Assembly (NCBI GenBank): GCA_043731355.1
Contig: JAYTJE010000079.1
Span: 9,483-73,482 of the forward strand
Origin: Nitrospirota bacterium
Lineage (GTDB): Bacteria; Nitrospirota; UBA9217
Reading direction: 5' to 3'
DNA: 64,000 bases
In this document: positions 25,738 to 34,609 of the stretch, in pieces
How positions within the stretch are numbered: the stretch's first letter is position 1
How the letters are laid out: each line of letters opens with the position of its first letter
Notes under the pieces: generated by a model
What the model saw: the letters and a program-made list of their open reading frames with translations, nothing else
Told to the model about the DNA's origin: nothing
Database searches by the model: none
Translations under genes and position numbers: made by a program

Positions 25738-25881
25738 TAGTTAGCGATAGTAAACCATGATGATCGAAAATGCAACCAGTATTTGATCGGGCCTTGATAA
25801 AATACGGGTATTGTCGTATAAAGAATGTAACTGCCAGGGGCGGGAGTATGATCTTATCAAAAAAATGTCAGGGTGGTTGCG

Positions 25882-26496
25882 ATGAAAAGAATTGACTTTC
25901 GTGATCGGTCAGCCGGGTTCATGTTGGTTGTTCTGATAGGCGCAGCTTTCGCGGCCTGTCATGCGCCACTATCCGCCCGCTCCCCCGCTCTTTCCCCCGG
26001 TGACAGCCGGTCGAGGCCGGAGATACGTGCAGTAGAGCTTGAAAAGCGCATTCATTTCCTGATCAATGGAGAACGGAAAAAGCATGGCCTTTCTTCGCTT
26101 GCATGGAATGATACGCTCAGCAGTATTGCGCGTACACACAGCAGTGACATGGCCAAGCGTGCGTATTTCAGCCATGTTTCTCCTGACGGACATGATTTTT
26201 CATATCGGTACAAACAGGATGGATATCAGTGTGAAGTTCGCGGCCCGGGGAATGTTTACTATACCGGCGGGGAAAATATCTTTCAAAATAATCTTTATAA
26301 CCGGGTCATGATCAGCAACGGCGTCAGGCAGTATGACTGGAACTCTGTCGACCGGATCGCCGAGTCGACCGTTGACGGATGGATGAAAAGCCCGGGTCAC
26401 CGGAAAAATATCCTGATGCCCTACTGGGTCAGCGAAGGAATTGGTGTTTCGGTCTCACCTGATGATAAAGTGTATATCACGCAGAATTTCTGCTGA
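25882..26496 (+). CDS. CAP/SCP (YkwD-like) domain secreted protein
   Basis: 'HSSDMAKRAYFSHVSPDG' and 'GGENIF'. The track ORF begins at an upstream GTG at 25873. Confidence 0.7.
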   Translation: MKRIDFRDRSAGFMLVVLIGAAFAACHAPLSARSPALSPGDSRSRPEIRAVELEKRIHFLINGERKKHGLSSLAWNDTLSSIARTHSSDMAKRAYFSHVSPDGHDFSYRYKQDGYQCEVRGPGNVYYTGGENIFQNNLYNRVMISNGVRQYDWNSVDRIAESTVDGWMKSPGHRKNILMPYWVSEGIGVSVSPDDKVYITQNFC

Positions 26497-26561: not shown

Positions 26562-26945
26562 TTATTCCGGAGATTTCGATTGATTACCTTCCTGGAGCAC
26601 TTTGCTCATGACATCTTTTAGCAACCGTTGCAGCTCATTGAACGATATGTCTTCACGTTCCGTTTTCGGATAGAGCGTGAGCATATGCAGCGCTGCCGGT
26701 TTATTCTCGTCAAAGTAAAAGATCAGCCGAAACCCGCCGCTCTTGCCGCGCTGCTGATCAGAGCTTTTCATCCTGACCTTCCATAGCCTGCGCTCAAAGC
26801 CTGGGATAGCAAATGCCTGCACCAAGGGCGCGGCCAGAAACTCCTTGTAGAAACTCTGCAGATCATTTTCGATGTGGCGATATTTGCGGCTGAGACGCTT
26901 GACTTCGTCCTGGAATCACGGACGCTCAACAAGGGCGGGAATCAT
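26562..26945 (-). pseudogene. RelE/ParE-family toxin gene interrupted by an in-frame TGA at codon 10 (26916-26918)
   Basis: The ATG at 26945 overlaps the stop of the upstream ORF (ATGA). Reading through the TGA gives 'FQDEVKRLSRKY...GFERRLWKVRMKSS...GFRLIFYF'. No ATG, GTG or TTG occurs after the TGA until the TTG at 26825. Confidence 0.5.
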
Positions 26946-27373
26946 TTAGCGGCGAACTCGATCTTTTCTACTTCTCCTGCAAGAAATGCCTCGTTTTTGA
27001 GCGCGAATGAAATGGAGTCGAGCTGCTCATCCAGCTCGTCTATGATCGTGTCGATTTTCCCCTTGAAAAGACTGACCGGACGGTAGCCCTTCATGGCGTA
27101 ATAATACAGGGAAAAGATGTCCCGCAGCATGGAGATGGACTTTCTGTCCTTCAGATACGGGAGCGCGGGCAGGATAACGCTCAGGTGCTTCTTGAATATG
27201 AACGGCACGAACTGAGCAAGGATCGCGTAGGCAACAAAAAAGAACGGGGCCGCAAGCAGCCAGGCGACACCCTTTCCAACGGTCTTCGCCGACTGGATCA
27301 TGGCAAAGCTCATGTCCTGCTGTGCCAAGCCCATAAATTGATTGAATGTTGCATTTGCGTTCATCGTGGTCAT
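26942..27373 (-). CDS. Hypothetical membrane protein, translationally coupled to the toxin gene (possible antitoxin-like C-terminus)
   Basis: Two TM helices and an acidic helical C-terminus 'IDELDEQLDSISFALKNEAFLAGE'. Confidence 0.4.
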   Translation of the reverse strand: MTTMNANATFNQFMGLAQQDMSFAMIQSAKTVGKGVAWLLAAPFFFVAYAILAQFVPFIFKKHLSVILPALPYLKDRKSISMLRDIFSLYYYAMKGYRPVSLFKGKIDTIIDELDEQLDSISFALKNEAFLAGEVEKIEFAAK

Positions 27374-27442
27374 GTATTTATCATAGTCAAACAGAGAGAA
27401 GATGTCAAGAAAATCAGTAGTAGTCTCGGAGGTACGCTCCAG

Positions 27443-28282
27443 TTATGCCTTATCAAAATACGCAACGATCGCTTTGCATTTGGGATAGGTTGAACAGCCC
27501 CAAAAAGGTTCATTCGTGTGCGCTCCCTTTTTTGCGACTCTCACAACCATAGGTGCCCCGCAGTCCGGGCACCTTTTACTTTTTTGATTGGAAGCGGGAG
27601 CGGCGCTTACTGCTGATCCGGCCATCTCAGAAGCAACCGGCACATCCACCGTTTTCAGATACTCCATCAACCTGCTGCCGTCAATCGCCTCAATCGCGTT
27701 TTCCTCGGCGAATTTTCTCGCATCAAGCGTAAACGTGCCCGTGGTAACGAAAAAGCTGGAATTGGTATTTGCCTGGGAAGAGATAGCGCCGTAAAAATCC
27801 CGCATCATCGAAAGCGTCACCTGATTCTCTCGATATTTTTTGCACTGCACGTAAGACGCTTTTCCATTCTTCCTGACGATCAAATCTATCCCGCCATCTC
27901 TTAAGCCGCCTGTGACTTCGACGGAGTAACGCTGCTTTTCAAAAAACGTCCCGACAAAATGCTCGAACTCTTTCCAAGACATTTGCTTTAATGACATCAG
28001 AGTTTTCTTGGATTCAAAGAATTCAAGCCGCTGTTTTTTACCGACCTTATTCTTGACGTAACCGATGGCGGAGAAAACGGCTGCAAATGCCGAAAGGCCG
28101 TAACAGAAATATGCGAACATCTTATTGAACCCACTGAACACGGCACCAGCCGGACCGCCTGGGCCATGAGAGAAGGTGAGATAAAACCCGGCACAAAGGA
28201 AAATGACGCTCGCAACAACACCGAGTACGGGATGTTTGAGACTGTTCTCTGCGATATCTTCTAACATGGTTTTCTTTGGCAT
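27443..28282 (-). CDS. Membrane-anchored Mrr-family (PD-(D/E)xK) restriction endonuclease domain protein with a C-terminal topoisomerase-type C4 zinc ribbon
   Basis: Two or three N-terminal TM helices. Mrr catalytic core 'DGGIDLIV...YVQCKKY'. Zinc ribbon 'CPDCGAPMVVRVAKKG...FWGCSTYPKCK'. Confidence 0.75.
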   Translation of the reverse strand: MPKKTMLEDIAENSLKHPVLGVVASVIFLCAGFYLTFSHGPGGPAGAVFSGFNKMFAYFCYGLSAFAAVFSAIGYVKNKVGKKQRLEFFESKKTLMSLKQMSWKEFEHFVGTFFEKQRYSVEVTGGLRDGGIDLIVRKNGKASYVQCKKYRENQVTLSMMRDFYGAISSQANTNSSFFVTTGTFTLDARKFAEENAIEAIDGSRLMEYLKTVDVPVASEMAGSAVSAAPASNQKSKRCPDCGAPMVVRVAKKGAHTNEPFWGCSTYPKCKAIVAYFDKA

Positions 28283-28303
28283 TTCAATCTTCCCTTCTGC
28301 AGA

Positions 28304-30760
28304 TTAGCGACCACAACAGCGTTTATATTTACGACTGCTACCACATGGGCATGTCTCGTTTCTACCGACTTCCTTTTGCGAAGTCTCCTTTAAATGGGTT
28401 GTGATGAAATGCTTTCTCTGTCTTTCCGATTCTTTTTCAATTTCCATTCTATGCGCTTCAGGCACATCGTTTAAGGTCAAATATTCGTGATCAACATCAA
28501 AGAGGCTGTGGTTCTCATCGAAGTACAGATTTAACAGCATTCGCTCGTTATCTCTTGATCTCAACAGAGTAGCCAACACATAATCACGTTTCCAAGCTTC
28601 ATCGTGCGAAGCAATCCCACGTTGCTCACAATAAATGCTTATCGGCAGGCTACCAAACAAGCTAAACGGAATGATGTGACCTTTCTTTTCCTGCCTTGAC
28701 AGAACGTCCTTAATGGAGGCATCGAATTTATTTCGCATGTCGCCAGCCATATCGAGTAAATCACGGGCTATTTTGCAGCGTCCAGGCTTCCCCTTCGCTC
28801 CTAATATTTTGATGATCTCGGACAACTTTGAAGGCAGCGTTTGAGCCGGTTTTTTCGCCTTACCGTCAGCTAGCATTTTGTCATGATAATATTGATCCAA
28901 GTCATCACGATAGCCAACCCAGCGAGGCGCTTCAGACTCATAATAGTCCTCAGCGTAACTGACGTATCTATTATGCTTCAGGTATAAACATAAGTGATCT
29001 AATTCGTCAGTCGCTTTTAAAGCGGGCGATTGAAATGCTCGTTGTCGTTCTTCCAGAAAATGAGTAAAAGCTAAAGGCGAATCAAAGATATCTGCGTAAA
29101 CTCGCAAATCATCCAGTGATACAGGCCAAATTGGAAATCCATATAAATCTGTTCCGATTGGCCGCAGGCTTTCTGCTTGAGCCGCGAGTGTTGTAAACTG
29201 ATCAAGCGTAACACAGCATGCTGTTATATGACGAAACTGTGATTGCCTCAGCTTCGCTATTGGTGTGTGATCCTCATCGTAAACGACAACCTCGTCCTTA
29301 CTTTTCAAGTATTCTGTGAAACGCTTTGCCTGAGTCGCAGGTTTCAATACCAAGTCTTTAATTGAAGACATATAAGCAGGAAAATCGGTTGCTGGCGGCG
29401 AATGTGTAAAAGCGCCGGCCTTGATTTCGACAATCAGCAAGTGATCATCGAATATAATTAATCCGTCGGTCTCACACCAGTTCATCTCACCGTTTTTGCC
29501 AGTGGCCCACTGATGATAGACAGAACGATAAGTTGTGGCGTTCGGCAGCAGTTTTGTAAGAAGTTTAAGAGGTAATTCCTCAGATATTTGTTTCTGTCGA
29601 ATATTCCATTTCTCTTTATACTCAGGCTGTAATCGGATAATTGCGCGTTGCAGAACACGATATATATTATCCATCAAATTCAACAGATCAAAACAGTAGT
29701 ATCGCCCATTAATACGTAGAAACGGACGTACTTGAACGGGCAGAAGCCGAAGCGGCCAACCTGCATATTCACCGGGGCCAAAGAATTTATCATCCTGCCC
29801 TGGTGCCCAGGATAGCTCATTAAGCAGACTGTCAGGAAAGCCGGTTATTTTTTGCACATCATGAAGATCAAATTCGCGCAAACGACCCATAATGGAATCT
29901 AGCCACTCTTGCCAATTATTCTCCCTAACCACCTCACTCATCAGCTCAGGCAAACTCTTTTCCGGATCAGCACCACTATGCAGCTTCTCACGAACTGCAT
30001 TTGTCGATACCTCTTGGAATTGATGAAACTCTTCAGTAACCTTCGGAAGCCCCTCCGAAAGGGTTTTCTGGATCAGCTCCATCCCCATGATAAACTCATC
30101 GCTTGTAATGCCGAACAGATCCTTAAGAACGTCACTGTGCACTGTAAGCAGATCACGCAAATGCGGAATGTGATAGTACGTATATCTATCGCCGCGTACA
30201 TTCGCCCACAACACTTGAGCTTTCACGTAATAGGAATCATACTCAGCATCATATTCTTTTTGCGTCGTCCTCAAATGAGCCGTATGGTAAATATGAAAAG
30301 TCAGTTGCTCTGAGTATAACTTTTTGATCTCCATGAACAGTTCATCCCATGTCTTCTGATCGAAGTCTCCTTTCCGTGATGCATCAGGCGGCGTTGACAC
30401 AACTACACTTTGAATATAATCGATCATTCTCATCGCCATTGAGGTGTCCTGATCAGCTTTGAATGTTGACTTGTTTTCACGAAAAGACTGGAAGAGATTG
30501 AAGAAGCCGCACTGAAGAAGTCGGAGGGGATCAAAAGTCTTAACTAATTCGCGTATCCTGCTTATGCGATTGTCAAAATCAGCGCAGACCTCAGGAAACC
30601 GTTGTGCAGCACGTTCTATGAACTTCTTGTGCTCTTCGTCTGTTGCAAAATTCTTCATCACAGCAAACTTGCCAAATCGCGCTATGCCTATCGGGCCAAA
30701 ACGGTAAACTTCGTCCGGCTTCGTATGTTTCTTCGCCTTTTTGTTCTTCTTCTTTGCCAT
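28304..30760 (-). CDS. Large uncharacterised protein (818 aa) with a central PD-(D/E)xK-like motif and a C-terminal SEC-C metal-binding motif; candidate defence protein
   Basis: Central 'ETDGLIIFDDHLLIVEIKAG' and C-terminal 'CPCGSSRKYKRCCG'. Lys-rich N-terminus. About 40% GC. It sits 6 nt from the RM gene and 21 nt from the Mrr gene. Confidence 0.6.
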   Translation of the reverse strand: MAKKKNKKAKKHTKPDEVYRFGPIGIARFGKFAVMKNFATDEEHKKFIERAAQRFPEVCADFDNRISRIRELVKTFDPLRLLQCGFFNLFQSFRENKSTFKADQDTSMAMRMIDYIQSVVVSTPPDASRKGDFDQKTWDELFMEIKKLYSEQLTFHIYHTAHLRTTQKEYDAEYDSYYVKAQVLWANVRGDRYTYYHIPHLRDLLTVHSDVLKDLFGITSDEFIMGMELIQKTLSEGLPKVTEEFHQFQEVSTNAVREKLHSGADPEKSLPELMSEVVRENNWQEWLDSIMGRLREFDLHDVQKITGFPDSLLNELSWAPGQDDKFFGPGEYAGWPLRLLPVQVRPFLRINGRYYCFDLLNLMDNIYRVLQRAIIRLQPEYKEKWNIRQKQISEELPLKLLTKLLPNATTYRSVYHQWATGKNGEMNWCETDGLIIFDDHLLIVEIKAGAFTHSPPATDFPAYMSSIKDLVLKPATQAKRFTEYLKSKDEVVVYDEDHTPIAKLRQSQFRHITACCVTLDQFTTLAAQAESLRPIGTDLYGFPIWPVSLDDLRVYADIFDSPLAFTHFLEERQRAFQSPALKATDELDHLCLYLKHNRYVSYAEDYYESEAPRWVGYRDDLDQYYHDKMLADGKAKKPAQTLPSKLSEIIKILGAKGKPGRCKIARDLLDMAGDMRNKFDASIKDVLSRQEKKGHIIPFSLFGSLPISIYCEQRGIASHDEAWKRDYVLATLLRSRDNERMLLNLYFDENHSLFDVDHEYLTLNDVPEAHRMEIEKESERQRKHFITTHLKETSQKEVGRNETCPCGSSRKYKRCCGR

Positions 30761-30766
30761 GGCCGG

Positions 30767-33700
30767 TCATGTGCTCTTTATTATCTTCTGCTCCTGATCA
30801 GTCACGCCATACAACTCATACACCAATTGGTCAATCTGCACATCGACGGCATCGATCTGACGCAGAATAGCGGTTTTTTCGTGATCGGTCTTGGTGGCAG
30901 GTAGTTGCTTGTTGAGCGAAAGCATTTGGTCAACGAGGGAAACGATTTTGTCATGACGGATTTTATCGTGAGCCTCGTTGAAGTTTATCGGACGAAACGG
31001 CAACCGCTCTATTGCCTGTTTGTTCACCGCAAAATAGCCGCCACGAAAAGCATTGGTCATTTGACGGATAAAGTTATCCAACAACTTTGAATTCAGCAAG
31101 CCGAGAATATACTTTAGGTCGTGATCTTCTGCATTCTCGAAGCGAAGACCATAGCCACCTGTCGTTATATTCACAAAAAATAGATCATTATCCTCATCAA
31201 GATCGGCCCGAAGACGTGTAGTCATGTAAGGTAAAAGTAATTTTCTGCCAATAAACGTCGCTATGTTTTGACCGCGAGCATAAGCATACCAATCCGGCCG
31301 AGAACTCCAAGTGCCGCGATCACGATCACCGAGAACCTGCTTTATTGATTTGAAATATGCCCATGTGAGAGGATAATCATTCTGTAGTACGTCGGAAGCG
31401 ATAAGCTTGGCTTGGCCGTTTGAATCAACAGAGTAAGGATAAATAATATACAGCTGTGCTGATCTATCTGTGACATAACGCTTAACATGCTCACCCTTGA
31501 CAACCGGTCGCAATATTGCCTGCTCAATTTCTATTGTCTCATTAAGGCCATTTGTTACTTTGCAAATATTGCCCTTCTTTGACTGACGCGTCACCATGTA
31601 TAATTTATCAGCGCTCGTTTTTAGGCCCTGAAAACAGTGTGGCCCAATACTATTCAGTAACGGTAATTCGGACTGCAATCTTGTAAGTAGATTGCCGCCT
31701 GCTCCCACAGCAATTGTCCAGCGTTGCCCACCGTGAGCAAGCTCAATTGGATCAAAATCGAAACTACCGTCATCCAGCATCTGCGATAGCCCTCTGGTTC
31801 CTTCGCTTTTGTATATCGCCCCTAAGTGAGCATAGCGGCAAATCGGGCTATCCTTGCGCTTCTGCAGCAAGAGTAAATTGGTATAAGTACCTGCCCCCTT
31901 AAATATTTGAGCATCTTCAAAATCTACGATATGATCAATGAGATTATTATCTGTAAGCAAGCCGCGCAGACCTTCTCCATAATCTGTCGTAAAGAACTTA
32001 TTGGGAAGAATATATCCGAGCCTTCCCTTATCTTTTAAAAGAGAAACTCCTCTTTCAACAAACAAAACATAAATATCATACGTAGCAGTCGCGGTACGAT
32101 AGTCTTGCGAATAATATTTTCGCATTTCTTCGCCTAATGATTGACTGCGGATATACGGCGGATTCCCTATCACTGCATCGAATCCGCCAGCCTTCGTGAT
32201 CTCGGAAAACTCTTTATCCCAATCAAAGACATTGACTCGATAACGTTCTTCATCATCCAGCATGGTCTGCTGCCGGTAAAAGTCAGGACCAACGAGCGAA
32301 TTGCCGCACTTGATGTTATCGCCAAGGTCGGGCAGCGCCCGTTCGTGGAACATGCGGAGCTGATTCGCAAGGGTCTGGTTGCTCTCGCCTTCGAGCACCT
32401 TCAGGAGCAACGACAGCTTTGTCACTTCCACAGCCTGGGAGTCGATGTCAACGCCGTAGATGTTATTCAGGAGGATACGTTTTTTCTCGGCTGTCGTTAG
32501 ATGCCAATTCGGAGTATTAGGATCAGGCGACGGGCCTTGATAAATTGAGGGCTGTTTGACCTTGGCCCACTTTTCAGGTTCGTTTTCGATATACCATTTT
32601 AAATGCCAGTCGAGAAGATATTGATAGGCGCCGAGAAGGAATGAGCCGGACCCGCAGGCAGGATCGAGGATGCGGAGTTTTGACGCTTCTTTTGGTGTAA
32701 TGCTGTTTCCCCCTTTGACAAAGGGGGATTGAGGGGGATTTACATCTGAGGCTTTAAATCCCCCCTTGCCCCCCTTTTCTAAAGGGGGGTTGAGTAAATT
32801 CCCCACGGTATTCTTGACGATGTAATCAACAATGTACTTCGGCGTGTAATAGACGCCGCCTGCTTTTCTGACCTCGGGCTTCTCCTCCACCTTCGCCTGA
32901 TGTCCTGCCGTGAGGCGAATGACCTTACCGAGGAACTGCTCATACACCTGGCCGAGAATATCAGCAGAGAGGACGGAGAATTCATACGGACTTTCGGGAT
33001 AGTAGAGCCGATTGATGATGTCTTTAAGCGGCTTATCGTCAATGGAGATGTTCGGGGTAAGCTTATCCGGCTCCTCGTGACGTTCCTTTTCCCGCTGGAA
33101 ATGGAACAGACCGGAGTTGTACCGGTCGTCAGCCTGGCTGAAGAGCTGCACAAGCCTTTTATATACGTTCGTGCCATTCAACTGCATCTGGAGCCTGCCG
33201 TATTCCTCAATACCCCGGTCTTCACAGATTCTCAGGAATACGATGCGGTCAATAGTGCGCTGCACCGCGAAATTCAGCTCGCGTGGGGATAGGCCCGTGT
33301 TTCGGATCGCGATGTTCCGCGCAAGGAGGTCGCGCCAGCCTTCGATCTCAGTCAAAAAAGCGTCGTCAACCGTTGCCGTTCCCTTCTTGAGCTTCGAAGA
33401 CTCGGCATACCTATCAAAGGAGCCCTTTTGTACGGACGTTGGTGAAAATATGGAAACGAGTTCGTCCCATTTAGCAGGATAATCTTTATACGTGAAGTAG
33501 AGTATGCGACCGGTGGAGGCCTTGTCGGTCTGGACGGGTTTTATGCGGCAATCGTAGACAGCGAATTCTTCAAAGTCGGTGAGGATGCTGAGCGGCAGTT
33601 TTGCGGACCAGGCATAGCGCCTGAGTTGAAAGGCTGGACTGACATCGTCCTTGAGATTGACTGAGGGCTTTTTCGCTTCAACAAAGAACTTCTTTACGCC

Positions 33701-33952
33701 GCCGATGCGAAAGCAGTAATCCGGGGCCTTGGTTGCGCCTCCGATCTTGATCGCGTCTTCGTGGATCACATCCCGGTATGCTTCGGCATAGCCCGCTTTG
33801 TTGGCCATGTCCCAACCAAGAGCGCCAAGAAACGGGTTGAGAAAATCTTGGCGAAGCTGCGCTTCGTTGTACTGACCGCCCTTGTAATTATCAAGGTTCC
33901 GGTCAAAGCGTTCGATCAGCTCGGCGATTTCATTCGGCAGCCCCATCAGCAC
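30767..33952 (-). CDS. Type IIG (MmeI-like) restriction-modification fusion enzyme: N-terminal PD-(D/E)xK nuclease plus N6-adenine methyltransferase plus target-recognition domain
   Basis: Nuclease 'PDYCFRIGG...FVEAKKP'. Methyltransferase motif I 'DPACGSGSFL' and motif IV 'NPPY'. 1061 aa, AT-rich. Confidence 0.8.
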   Translation of the reverse strand: MLMGLPNEIAELIERFDRNLDNYKGGQYNEAQLRQDFLNPFLGALGWDMANKAGYAEAYRDVIHEDAIKIGGATKAPDYCFRIGGVKKFFVEAKKPSVNLKDDVSPAFQLRRYAWSAKLPLSILTDFEEFAVYDCRIKPVQTDKASTGRILYFTYKDYPAKWDELVSIFSPTSVQKGSFDRYAESSKLKKGTATVDDAFLTEIEGWRDLLARNIAIRNTGLSPRELNFAVQRTIDRIVFLRICEDRGIEEYGRLQMQLNGTNVYKRLVQLFSQADDRYNSGLFHFQREKERHEEPDKLTPNISIDDKPLKDIINRLYYPESPYEFSVLSADILGQVYEQFLGKVIRLTAGHQAKVEEKPEVRKAGGVYYTPKYIVDYIVKNTVGNLLNPPLEKGGKGGFKASDVNPPQSPFVKGGNSITPKEASKLRILDPACGSGSFLLGAYQYLLDWHLKWYIENEPEKWAKVKQPSIYQGPSPDPNTPNWHLTTAEKKRILLNNIYGVDIDSQAVEVTKLSLLLKVLEGESNQTLANQLRMFHERALPDLGDNIKCGNSLVGPDFYRQQTMLDDEERYRVNVFDWDKEFSEITKAGGFDAVIGNPPYIRSQSLGEEMRKYYSQDYRTATATYDIYVLFVERGVSLLKDKGRLGYILPNKFFTTDYGEGLRGLLTDNNLIDHIVDFEDAQIFKGAGTYTNLLLLQKRKDSPICRYAHLGAIYKSEGTRGLSQMLDDGSFDFDPIELAHGGQRWTIAVGAGGNLLTRLQSELPLLNSIGPHCFQGLKTSADKLYMVTRQSKKGNICKVTNGLNETIEIEQAILRPVVKGEHVKRYVTDRSAQLYIIYPYSVDSNGQAKLIASDVLQNDYPLTWAYFKSIKQVLGDRDRGTWSSRPDWYAYARGQNIATFIGRKLLLPYMTTRLRADLDEDNDLFFVNITTGGYGLRFENAEDHDLKYILGLLNSKLLDNFIRQMTNAFRGGYFAVNKQAIERLPFRPINFNEAHDKIRHDKIVSLVDQMLSLNKQLPATKTDHEKTAILRQIDAVDVQIDQLVYELYGVTDQEQKIIKST
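32705..32800. repeat. Cluster of three G/C-rich hairpins (C5-6 ... G5-6 inverted repeats) inserted in-frame in the RM gene
   Basis: CCCCCTTTGACAAAGGGGG, GGGGGATTTA..TAAATCCCCCC and CCCCCCTTTTCTAAAGGGGGG. The insert encodes a KGG-rich peptide between methyltransferase motifs. Confidence 0.6.
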
Positions 33953-34096: not shown

Positions 34097-34480
34097 CTAC
34101 CCCTTGCAGGCAATAAAATCTATCTCAATGGCGACATCCCTGGGAAGGCGCGAAACTTCGACCGTGGCGCGCGCCGGAGGATCGACCGGAAAATAACTTC
34201 CATACACCTCGTTCACCGCGGCAAAATCAGACATGTTCTTCAGGTATATCGTCGCCTTCACCATGTCGGACATGGCGCAGCCTGCCGCGGTAATGATGCC
34301 CTTGGCGTTCTCCATGACCAGTTTTGTCTGGGTTTTTATGTCTCCCTGGGCCACCATGCCTGTCTTCGCATCGATCGGTATCTGGCCCGACACAAAGACC
34401 ATGCCGCCGGCCTTCACTGCCTGTGAATAAGAACCGATCGCCTTGGGAGCGCCACCTGTTATAATGATTTCTCGTGCCAA
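34097..34480 (-). CDS. ridA: RidA/YjgF family enamine/imine deaminase
   Basis: 'ITGGAPKAIGSYSQAV...VFVSGQIP'. The start is TTG at 34480, 6 nt after a GGAGG; 34492 and 34495 are alternatives. Confidence 0.85.
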   Translation of the reverse strand: MAREIIITGGAPKAIGSYSQAVKAGGMVFVSGQIPIDAKTGMVAQGDIKTQTKLVMENAKGIITAAGCAMSDMVKATIYLKNMSDFAAVNEVYGSYFPVDPPARATVEVSRLPRDVAIEIDFIACKG

Positions 34481-34609
34481 ATTAGCCTCCATCAATTGTT
34501 TAACATATATCTATAAATCATTGATAAATGACGATTATTATAATATTAAGTAAACTATTACCATAAAAAGCATCTGACACGGAAGGGTCGGATTAACGTC
34601 TGATAAAAG

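Follow-up and report, generated by a model that had tools for sequence, protein, structure and literature searches.

What does a Mrr-type nuclease do when it is joined to membrane helices at one end and to a topoisomerase-type zinc ribbon at the other? The question is raised by a gene at 27443-28282 (minus strand) of a 64,000-nt stretch of DNA from a Nitrospirota bacterium (contig JAYTJE010000079.1; the whole stretch is called the window here), whose product we refer to as TM-Mrr after its transmembrane (TM) helices and its Mrr core. Our proposed answer is that TM-Mrr is a stand-alone, catalytically competent Mrr_cat endonuclease, anchored in the membrane and bearing a zinc ribbon, whose activity would be confined to DNA located at the membrane, a reading to which we assign a probability of roughly 55%. 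It is built on the domain composition, intact active and zinc sites, purifying selection on all three modules, a consistent topology and a context of defence genes and mobile elements.

The ATG-started open reading frame (ORF) encodes 279 amino acids (aa), is preceded at 7 nt by a Shine-Dalgarno-like AAGGGA, and is separated by 21 nt from the stop codon of the gene before it. A preliminary description of this DNA had placed the ORF at these coordinates and had quoted the strings 'DGGIDLIV...YVQCKKY' and 'CPDCG...FWGCSTYPKCK' as marks of an Mrr nuclease and a topoisomerase-type ribbon; the strings are present as claimed, and both domains scored above the Pfam thresholds, Mrr_cat (PF04471) at aa 98-208 (E=1.5e-28; 99.7 bits vs a cut-off of 21; profile positions 1-114 of 115) and Zn_ribbon_Top1 (PF01396) at aa 237-271 (E=8.7e-10; 38.7 bits vs a cut-off of 32). 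NCBIfam detected the ribbon alone, as the C-terminal zinc-finger region of topoisomerase I models, and PADLOC matched the protein to mREase_IV (E=3.8e-10). A match to NA-iREase1 (PF22722; 38.8 bits) that overlaps Mrr_cat was rejected, since the catalytic tetrad is intact and neither the protein nor its operon holds a NACHT domain. The parts of the gene, with the evidence for each (AlphaFold2 model, alignment and charge statistics are described below), are:

27443..28282, minus strand: whole gene, membrane-anchored Mrr_cat nuclease with a C-terminal zinc ribbon, 279 aa (ORF, domains, substitution ratios)
28235..28267, minus strand: N-terminal cytoplasmic helix, aa 6-16 (MLEDIAENSLK), with a conserved 'ED-I-E' motif (AlphaFold2, alignment)
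28172..28234, minus strand: predicted TM helix 1, aa 17-37, starting with the near-invariant P18..G21 (Kyte-Doolittle peak 2.29; AlphaFold2 helix 18-37)
28121..28171, minus strand: short predicted periplasmic loop, aa 38-54, with one Lys/Arg and zero acidic residues (hydropathy, family charge statistics)
28055..28120, minus strand: predicted TM helix 2, aa 55-76 (Kyte-Doolittle peak 1.71; within the continuous AlphaFold2 helix 44-91)
27998..28054, minus strand: basic juxtamembrane helix, aa 77-95 (KNKVGKKQR...), on the predicted cytoplasmic side (8 Lys/Arg in aa 77-100; positive-inside statistics)
27659..27991, minus strand: Mrr_cat PD-(D/E)xK nuclease core, aa 98-208 (Pfam, invariant residues, Foldseek)
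27962-27964, 27884-27886, 27845-27847 and 27839-27841, minus strand: catalytic codons of E107, D133, Q146 and K148, respectively (coordinates checked)
27575..27646, minus strand: flexible Ala/Ser-rich linker, aa 213-236 (low model confidence, variable in the alignment, highest substitution ratio of the modules)
27470..27574, minus strand: topoisomerase-I-type C4 zinc ribbon, aa 237-271, with C238, C241, C263 and C269 (Pfam, AlphaFold2, match to TopA)

An alignment of 98 homologues, reaching down to ~30% identity, revealed that E107, D133, Q146 and K148, which make up the PD-(D/E)xK site in the Mrr 'D-QxK' variant, are invariant, as are the zinc ligands C238, C241, C263 and C269 (pattern CxxC...C(x5)C) and the residues F260, G262 and P267. 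The linker varies in both length and sequence across the same alignment. Within the TM module, P18 and G21 are conserved in at least 90% of the aligned sequences, and a 'PWW' motif is shared by proteobacterial members at this position, which argues that this module is more than a generic anchor. The ratio of nonsynonymous to synonymous substitution rates (dN/dS) against five orthologues was 0.12-0.14 overall (about 0.13), with the lowest values in the nuclease (0.06-0.08), 0.11-0.22 in the TM module and 0.10-0.29 in the ribbon; because dN/dS is low in each, all three modules are under selection. The invariant tetrad together with the lowest ratio in the nuclease fits an active enzyme rather than an inactivated sensor domain, and the suggestion in the preliminary description that the protein might be a sensor of incoming DNA is thus disfavoured.

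The AlphaFold2 model, computed with the homologue alignment (mean predicted local distance difference test score (pLDDT) 80.6), contains helices at 6-16, 18-37 and 44-91, the last being TM helix 2 extended into the basic juxtamembrane helix, then an alpha/beta core (103-212), a disordered segment (215-232; pLDDT <50) and a three-stranded ribbon (244-274). In a Foldseek search of the Protein Data Bank (PDB) the core, and the core only, matched AF1548 (1Y88, E=2.3e-5), MspJI, AspBHI, Cdn1/Can2 and NucS, while a profile search of PDB sequences matched the ribbon to residues 590-636 of E. coli topoisomerase I (TopA; 4RUL) and to Topo III-alpha. The whole TM-Mrr-ribbon architecture was found among solved structures by neither search.

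The membrane placement was judged from Kyte-Doolittle hydropathy, the AlphaFold2 helices, family-wide conservation of the hydrophobic segments and the positive-inside rule. Hydropathy gave two hydrophobic segments, ~17-37 (peak 2.29) and ~55-76 (peak 1.71); where two or three hydrophobic helices had been proposed before, two therefore hold, and the third corresponds to the short helix 6-16. Lys/Arg residues number 8 in the 24 residues after TM helix 2 vs 1 in the 17-residue loop. The same bias runs through a sample of 270 homologues bearing the nuclease motif: the two-helix members (n = 165) have on average 2.3 Lys+Arg before the first helix, 1.4 in the loop and 4.2 after the second helix (more exactly 1.39 in a loop of ~20 aa vs 4.22 in the 15 aa following the second helix), and the one-helix members (n = 79) have 1.0 before the helix and 4.4 after it. 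By the positive-inside rule, this charge pattern places the nuclease domain in the cytoplasm and is consistent with a two-helix hairpin with both ends inside (N-in/C-in). No family of any kind in Pfam or PHROGs matched the N-terminal module; aa 1-95 had no PHROGs match, and neither Pfam nor PHROGs gave a holin match for the whole protein (E<=0.1).

Read together, these features suggest how such a protein might work. The N-in/C-in hairpin would hold the nuclease permanently at the cytoplasmic face of the inner membrane, and the zinc ribbon, on its flexible tether of ~25 residues, would capture DNA near the membrane, perhaps distorted or single-stranded by analogy with Topo I, and pass it to the nuclease. 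Cleavage would then be limited to membrane-located DNA, that is, to incoming phage, plasmid or other DNA, and the nucleoid would be avoided; because a modification reader is not present, the chromosome would be spared mainly by geometry. We infer from this that the substrate is DNA, that the enzyme acts on DNA as it enters, that it spares self by location, and that its role is in defence.

Is such an architecture rare? The preliminary description had called it unusual, and this does not survive the searches. Of the 270 nuclease-motif homologues, 242 pair at least one N-terminal hydrophobic helix with a zinc ribbon. A 90%-clustered protein database gave 1,218 matches; nearly all of the 120 listed carry PF04471 and PF01396, and their names, where given, are 'restriction endonuclease' or 'restriction system protein'. 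The family profile, run against 1.84 billion 50%-identity representatives, retrieved 2,882 proteins at E<=1e-30, of which the best 150 all have E<1e-62 and mostly align across most of the profile. Scanning a genome collection, with seeds on the zinc-ribbon motif only, gave at least 80 loci, most of them matching the query in the zinc-ribbon region only, with ~15 usable. Species representatives with the same architecture include members of Opitutales, Desulfuromonadales, Burkholderiales, Paraglaciecola, Paenibacillus, Bacillus and Patescibacteria. By tblastn, 561 plasmid records have matches, 283 of them conjugative, in hosts that include Klebsiella, E. coli, Citrobacter, Serratia, Aeromonas and Nitrosococcus, and the plasmid matches listed are mostly annotated 'restriction endonuclease'. 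Phage genomes have almost none (five weak records). TM-Mrr-zinc-ribbon is thus a very large family that is already annotated and experimentally uncharacterised, and our literature search found no paper on Mrr with zf-C4_Topoisom, on a membrane-anchored nuclease of this kind, or on a topoisomerase-ribbon/Mrr/TM architecture. Two plasmid homologues were inspected, L097:4923-5717 (Aeromonas) and L096:6620-7642 (Klebsiella pneumoniae, MOBH/MPF_F), and have 2-4 TM helices, Mrr_cat and the ribbon; both lie within conjugative-transfer regions, one directly after traN and the other near lepB, parB and traA.

The window itself is chromosomal, with DnaE, RecJ, RelA/SpoT and RidA on one side of the gene and an SLT transglycosylase and a CAP-domain protein on the other. 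Between the RidA gene (34097-34495) and the CAP gene (25873-26496) the G+C content falls to 0.44-0.49 vs mostly 0.50-0.59 elsewhere, and the genes of this low-G+C segment, all on the minus strand, encode a type IIG enzyme, an 818-aa SEC-C protein, TM-Mrr, a 143-aa membrane protein and a RelE-like ORF. TM-Mrr is here the terminal gene of what would be a defence operon headed by the type IIG restriction-modification enzyme. The features next to it are:

30767..33952, minus strand: Eco57I/MmeI-like type IIG restriction-modification gene, 1061 aa, first in the co-directional array
28304..30760, minus strand: 818-aa variable 'cargo' protein, in which only a C-terminal SEC-C motif is recognised
27380..27408, minus strand: promoter-like site TTGACA-17-TATGAT, 11/12, just past the TM-Mrr stop (a match to consensus only)

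The type IIG gene matched Eco57I in Pfam (E=6.6e-50) and REase_MTase_IIG in PADLOC (E=7.6e-254). We considered that this enzyme might borrow the TM-Mrr nuclease and rejected the idea, since its own N-terminal PD...EAK motif is intact and it matches HSDR_N. An in-frame insertion of 28 aa, NPPLEKGGKGGFKASDVNPPQSPFVKGGNS, stands at 32709-32788 (aa ~387-416), between its YYTP motif and its S-adenosylmethionine-binding LDPACGSGSF motif, and consists of two palindromic units, CCCCCTTTnnnnAAAGGGGG. The orthologues of loci L002 and L009 do not have the insertion, and its units are not repeated in any other part of the window; a loop of the enzyme appears to have accommodated a miniature palindromic element.

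Downstream of TM-Mrr, at 26562-27373 (minus strand), lie the 143-aa membrane protein gene (26942-27373), without a family match, and then the 87-aa RelE-like ORF (Pfam E=7e-4, below threshold), neither of which is kept beside homologues. The promoter-like site suggests that TM-Mrr ends the operon and that the 143-aa gene is separately transcribed. A toxin-antitoxin or other two-gene system of TM-Mrr with the 143-aa protein was rejected, because of this promoter-like site, because the gene downstream of the homologue in L003 is unrelated, and because downstream genes differ everywhere.

We then asked what surrounds the homologues, taking contexts from contigs that encode them exactly. By identity to TM-Mrr, they read in order as follows:

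92% identical homologue: KAP NTPase, type IIG, caspase, an unknown gene, SNIPE/T5orf172, then TM-Mrr
88% identical homologue: Eco57I-type methylase, T5orf172-ResIII, DUF2321, TPR, HEPN, HEPN_LA2681, then TM-Mrr
second 88% identical homologue (Nitrospirota class UBA9217): two ThsB-TIR genes, type IIG, HEPN, HEPN_LA2681, then TM-Mrr
82% identical homologue: type IIG, PIN_4, GIY-YIG/RAMA, then TM-Mrr
80% identical homologue: MNT/HepT, type IIG, an unknown 436-aa protein, then TM-Mrr, the whole between RecQ and LolA
54% identical homologue: a PLD-helicase-DUF3427 protein, HNH, MazG and HNH upstream
~53% identical homologues: type III Mod-Res directly upstream, with Shedu and SLFN or CBASS farther upstream
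45-49% identical homologues, one each: beside DISARM-like genes of an integrative element; in an integrase island that also holds SNase and Hxs genes; among lipid-A genes, with a patatin gene alongside

Other neighbour types include toxin-antitoxin pairs and integrases. In 14 taxonomically distant genomes the defence neighbours are Fic, TIR, AbiEii-like ATPases, STAND NTPases, type I/II restriction-modification and McrB-like genes, accompanied by integrases, a Tn3 transposase and genes of integrative and conjugative elements (ICE; DUF4400, DUF2895), mixed with housekeeping genes. Most sampled contexts are thus defence islands or mobile elements in which TM-Mrr rides as a self-contained module, and no partner gene is conserved across the family in the contexts sampled. 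A membrane-localised effector, as first proposed, is the most economical reading of this context and of the anatomy.

Within the clade of at least 80% identity the surroundings are far more regular. All six arrangements with enough upstream sequence (window 27443-33952, minus strand; L002; L003-L006; L009/L010; L104; L106) begin with an Eco57I-type methylase or type IIG gene, continue with cargo and end with TM-Mrr as the last co-directional gene. The cargo consists of 1-8 unrelated genes, among them the SEC-C protein, a caspase with SNIPE, PIN_4 with GIY-YIG, and a HEPN pair, and what lies outside varies from one arrangement to the next. In 5 of the 6 the type IIG genes are related to one another; the enzyme of the window shares 58-90% aa identity with its positional counterparts in the other four. 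When the window was compared with L002 or L009, DNA similarity was limited to two gene bodies, type IIG and TM-Mrr, and that of TM-Mrr begins at the start codon and ends 1-8 nt from the stop codon. A search around the cargo for repeats or recombination sites yielded nothing beyond short matches in two copies, as expected by chance. These comparisons suggest that the type IIG gene and TM-Mrr move as a pair, with cargo being replaced in the interval that separates them.

Loci built as type IIG gene, variable cargo and TM-Mrr can be mined cheaply for candidate defence genes, for example that of the 818-aa SEC-C protein, whose place in the variable defence-cargo slot makes it a candidate for defence by a single gene. 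A PD-(D/E)xK-like stretch, 'DGLIIFDDHLLIVEIKAG', occurs in this protein, and its family, ~815 aa long, keeps ~40% full-length identity in Paenibacillus, Bacillus, Photobacterium, Labrenzia and others; the sole annotation of the family is 'SEC-C metal-binding domain-containing protein'. A functional pair of TM-Mrr and the SEC-C protein was rejected, since the two occur together only in the identical contig L001 and other close relatives have different genes in that slot.

How does the membrane-confined nuclease compare with other explanations of the same data? One is an abortive-infection effector, 'holin-like' in the manner of Epona (a tested protein to which we return below), whose TM hairpin senses or causes membrane perturbation and oligomerises while the nuclease degrades host and phage DNA and kills the infected cell. 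The conserved TM module (P18, G21; 'PWW') and the purifying selection on it, suggesting more than anchoring, speak for this, as do the many neighbours of abortive-infection type beside homologues (HEPN, TIR, caspase, CBASS). However, Pfam and PHROGs offer no holin or other family for the first 95 aa, the homologues have no antitoxin or immunity partner in common (each context has a different gene downstream), and a constitutive active site without a recognisable regulatory domain would likely be uncontrollably toxic, so that we hold this explanation to be unlikely. A classical modification-dependent type IV enzyme, only incidentally membrane-bound and cutting foreign-methylated or hypermodified DNA like E. 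coli Mrr, would share the Mrr-family catalytic core with its D-QxK variant and would account for the PADLOC mREase_IV match and for the modification-dependent MspJI and AspBHI among the nearest structures; the gene also adjoins restriction-modification genes, an arrangement known from E. coli K-12, where mrr and hsd are neighbours. Yet these structural matches are limited to the catalytic domain, the protein has no Mrr_N, SRA or other modification-reading domain and its sole DNA-binding module is a generic Topo-type ribbon, and the host encodes an m6A-type (N6-methyladenine) IIG methylase in the same operon. We regard such an enzyme as very unlikely here; since the Mrr_N winged-helix reader is missing, the preliminary description reasonably set TM-Mrr apart from classical cytoplasmic type IV enzymes.

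An accessory to DNA transfer, acting at the membrane in conjugation or natural transformation to process or exclude single-stranded DNA, is to our minds the least probable of these explanations. It would suit the 561 plasmid records (283 conjugative) with homologues after traN and near traA and parB, the ICE-type genes (DUF4400, DUF2895) among the neighbours, and a ribbon whose relatives in Topo I bind single-stranded DNA; membrane nucleases of competent Gram-positive bacteria, EndA and NucA, are offered as analogues. Against this, EndA and NucA have different nuclease folds, and the window and all close relatives are without transfer genes, their neighbours being chromosomal defence genes. 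The membrane-confined nuclease has its own difficulties. The plasmid homologues inside conjugative-transfer regions could mean a role in DNA transfer and not in defence, and one homologue, P0032, lies among housekeeping genes and adjoins a patatin gene only. That the ribbon might prefer single strands is extrapolated from what is known of Topo I. A tethered nuclease would also need some means of avoiding chromosomal DNA that touches the membrane.

A broader proposal may be built on the membrane-confined nuclease, namely that the TM-Mrr-ribbon family is a widespread innate-immunity nuclease that distinguishes self from non-self by position and not by modification, cutting only DNA at or passing through the inner membrane, and that in the present lineage TM-Mrr and the type IIG gene also form two conserved 'brackets', between which homologous recombination would swap the defence cargo, making the operon an exchange site for defence cassettes; we advance it as speculative, the odds being well against it. 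The single gene described here is ordinary, one more member of an abundant annotated family, and its value is as a pointer. The family counts thousands of sequence clusters and occurs on clinical Enterobacteriaceae plasmids, and the one experimentally tested protein that can be set beside it, Epona, is only loosely similar. If the proposal is true, a membrane tether that restricts incoming DNA without a modification reader would be a simple form of spatial self/non-self discrimination.

Among known systems, E. coli Mrr and AF1548 (PDB 1Y88) belong to the same catalytic family, with the D...(Q/E)xK variant, and AF1548 is the best structural match of the core. Mrr itself, however, is cytoplasmic and has the N-terminal winged-helix Mrr_N reader of modified DNA, whereas TM-Mrr has the predicted hairpin and a C-terminal ribbon, and neither Pfam nor NCBIfam gave a match to Mrr_N. 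The ribbon is of the same C4 family as the C-terminal domains of E. coli topoisomerase I (PDB 4RUL), but it is single rather than in an array and is joined to a nuclease rather than to a topoisomerase core. We also noticed TM-NERD-zinc-ribbon proteins, equally uncharacterised, in Vibrio mimicus and Vibrio sp. (L043:18-572 and L062:9593-10384); these share with TM-Mrr an N-terminal membrane helix, a nuclease of the PD-(D/E)xK superfamily and a C-terminal Topo-type C4 ribbon (FWGCSxFPKC), the nuclease being NERD there and Mrr_cat here.

Zorya (ZorAB with ZorD/ZorE) concentrates nucleases, Mrr-like in ZorD, at the inner membrane at the infection site (PMC11890865). TM-Mrr would likewise be located at the inner membrane where phage DNA enters; unlike the multi-protein Zorya, whose soluble nuclease is recruited on infection by a MotAB-like sensor, it is one polypeptide without a recognisable sensor. 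Epona, from a Vibrio cholerae superintegron cassette, is a single-gene protein with Mrr_cat and two TM helices that is anti-phage in E. coli (bioRxiv 10.1101/2024.07.02.601686). Going by the published description of Epona, both combine Mrr_cat and two N-terminal TM helices in one protein; TM-Mrr differs in its zinc ribbon, none being mentioned for Epona, and in ending a type IIG restriction-modification operon where Epona is an integron cassette. Homologues of Epona are reported to be almost restricted to V. cholerae, whereas the TM-Mrr family spans many phyla. By analogy of their parts, Epona appears to be the closest tested analogue of TM-Mrr.

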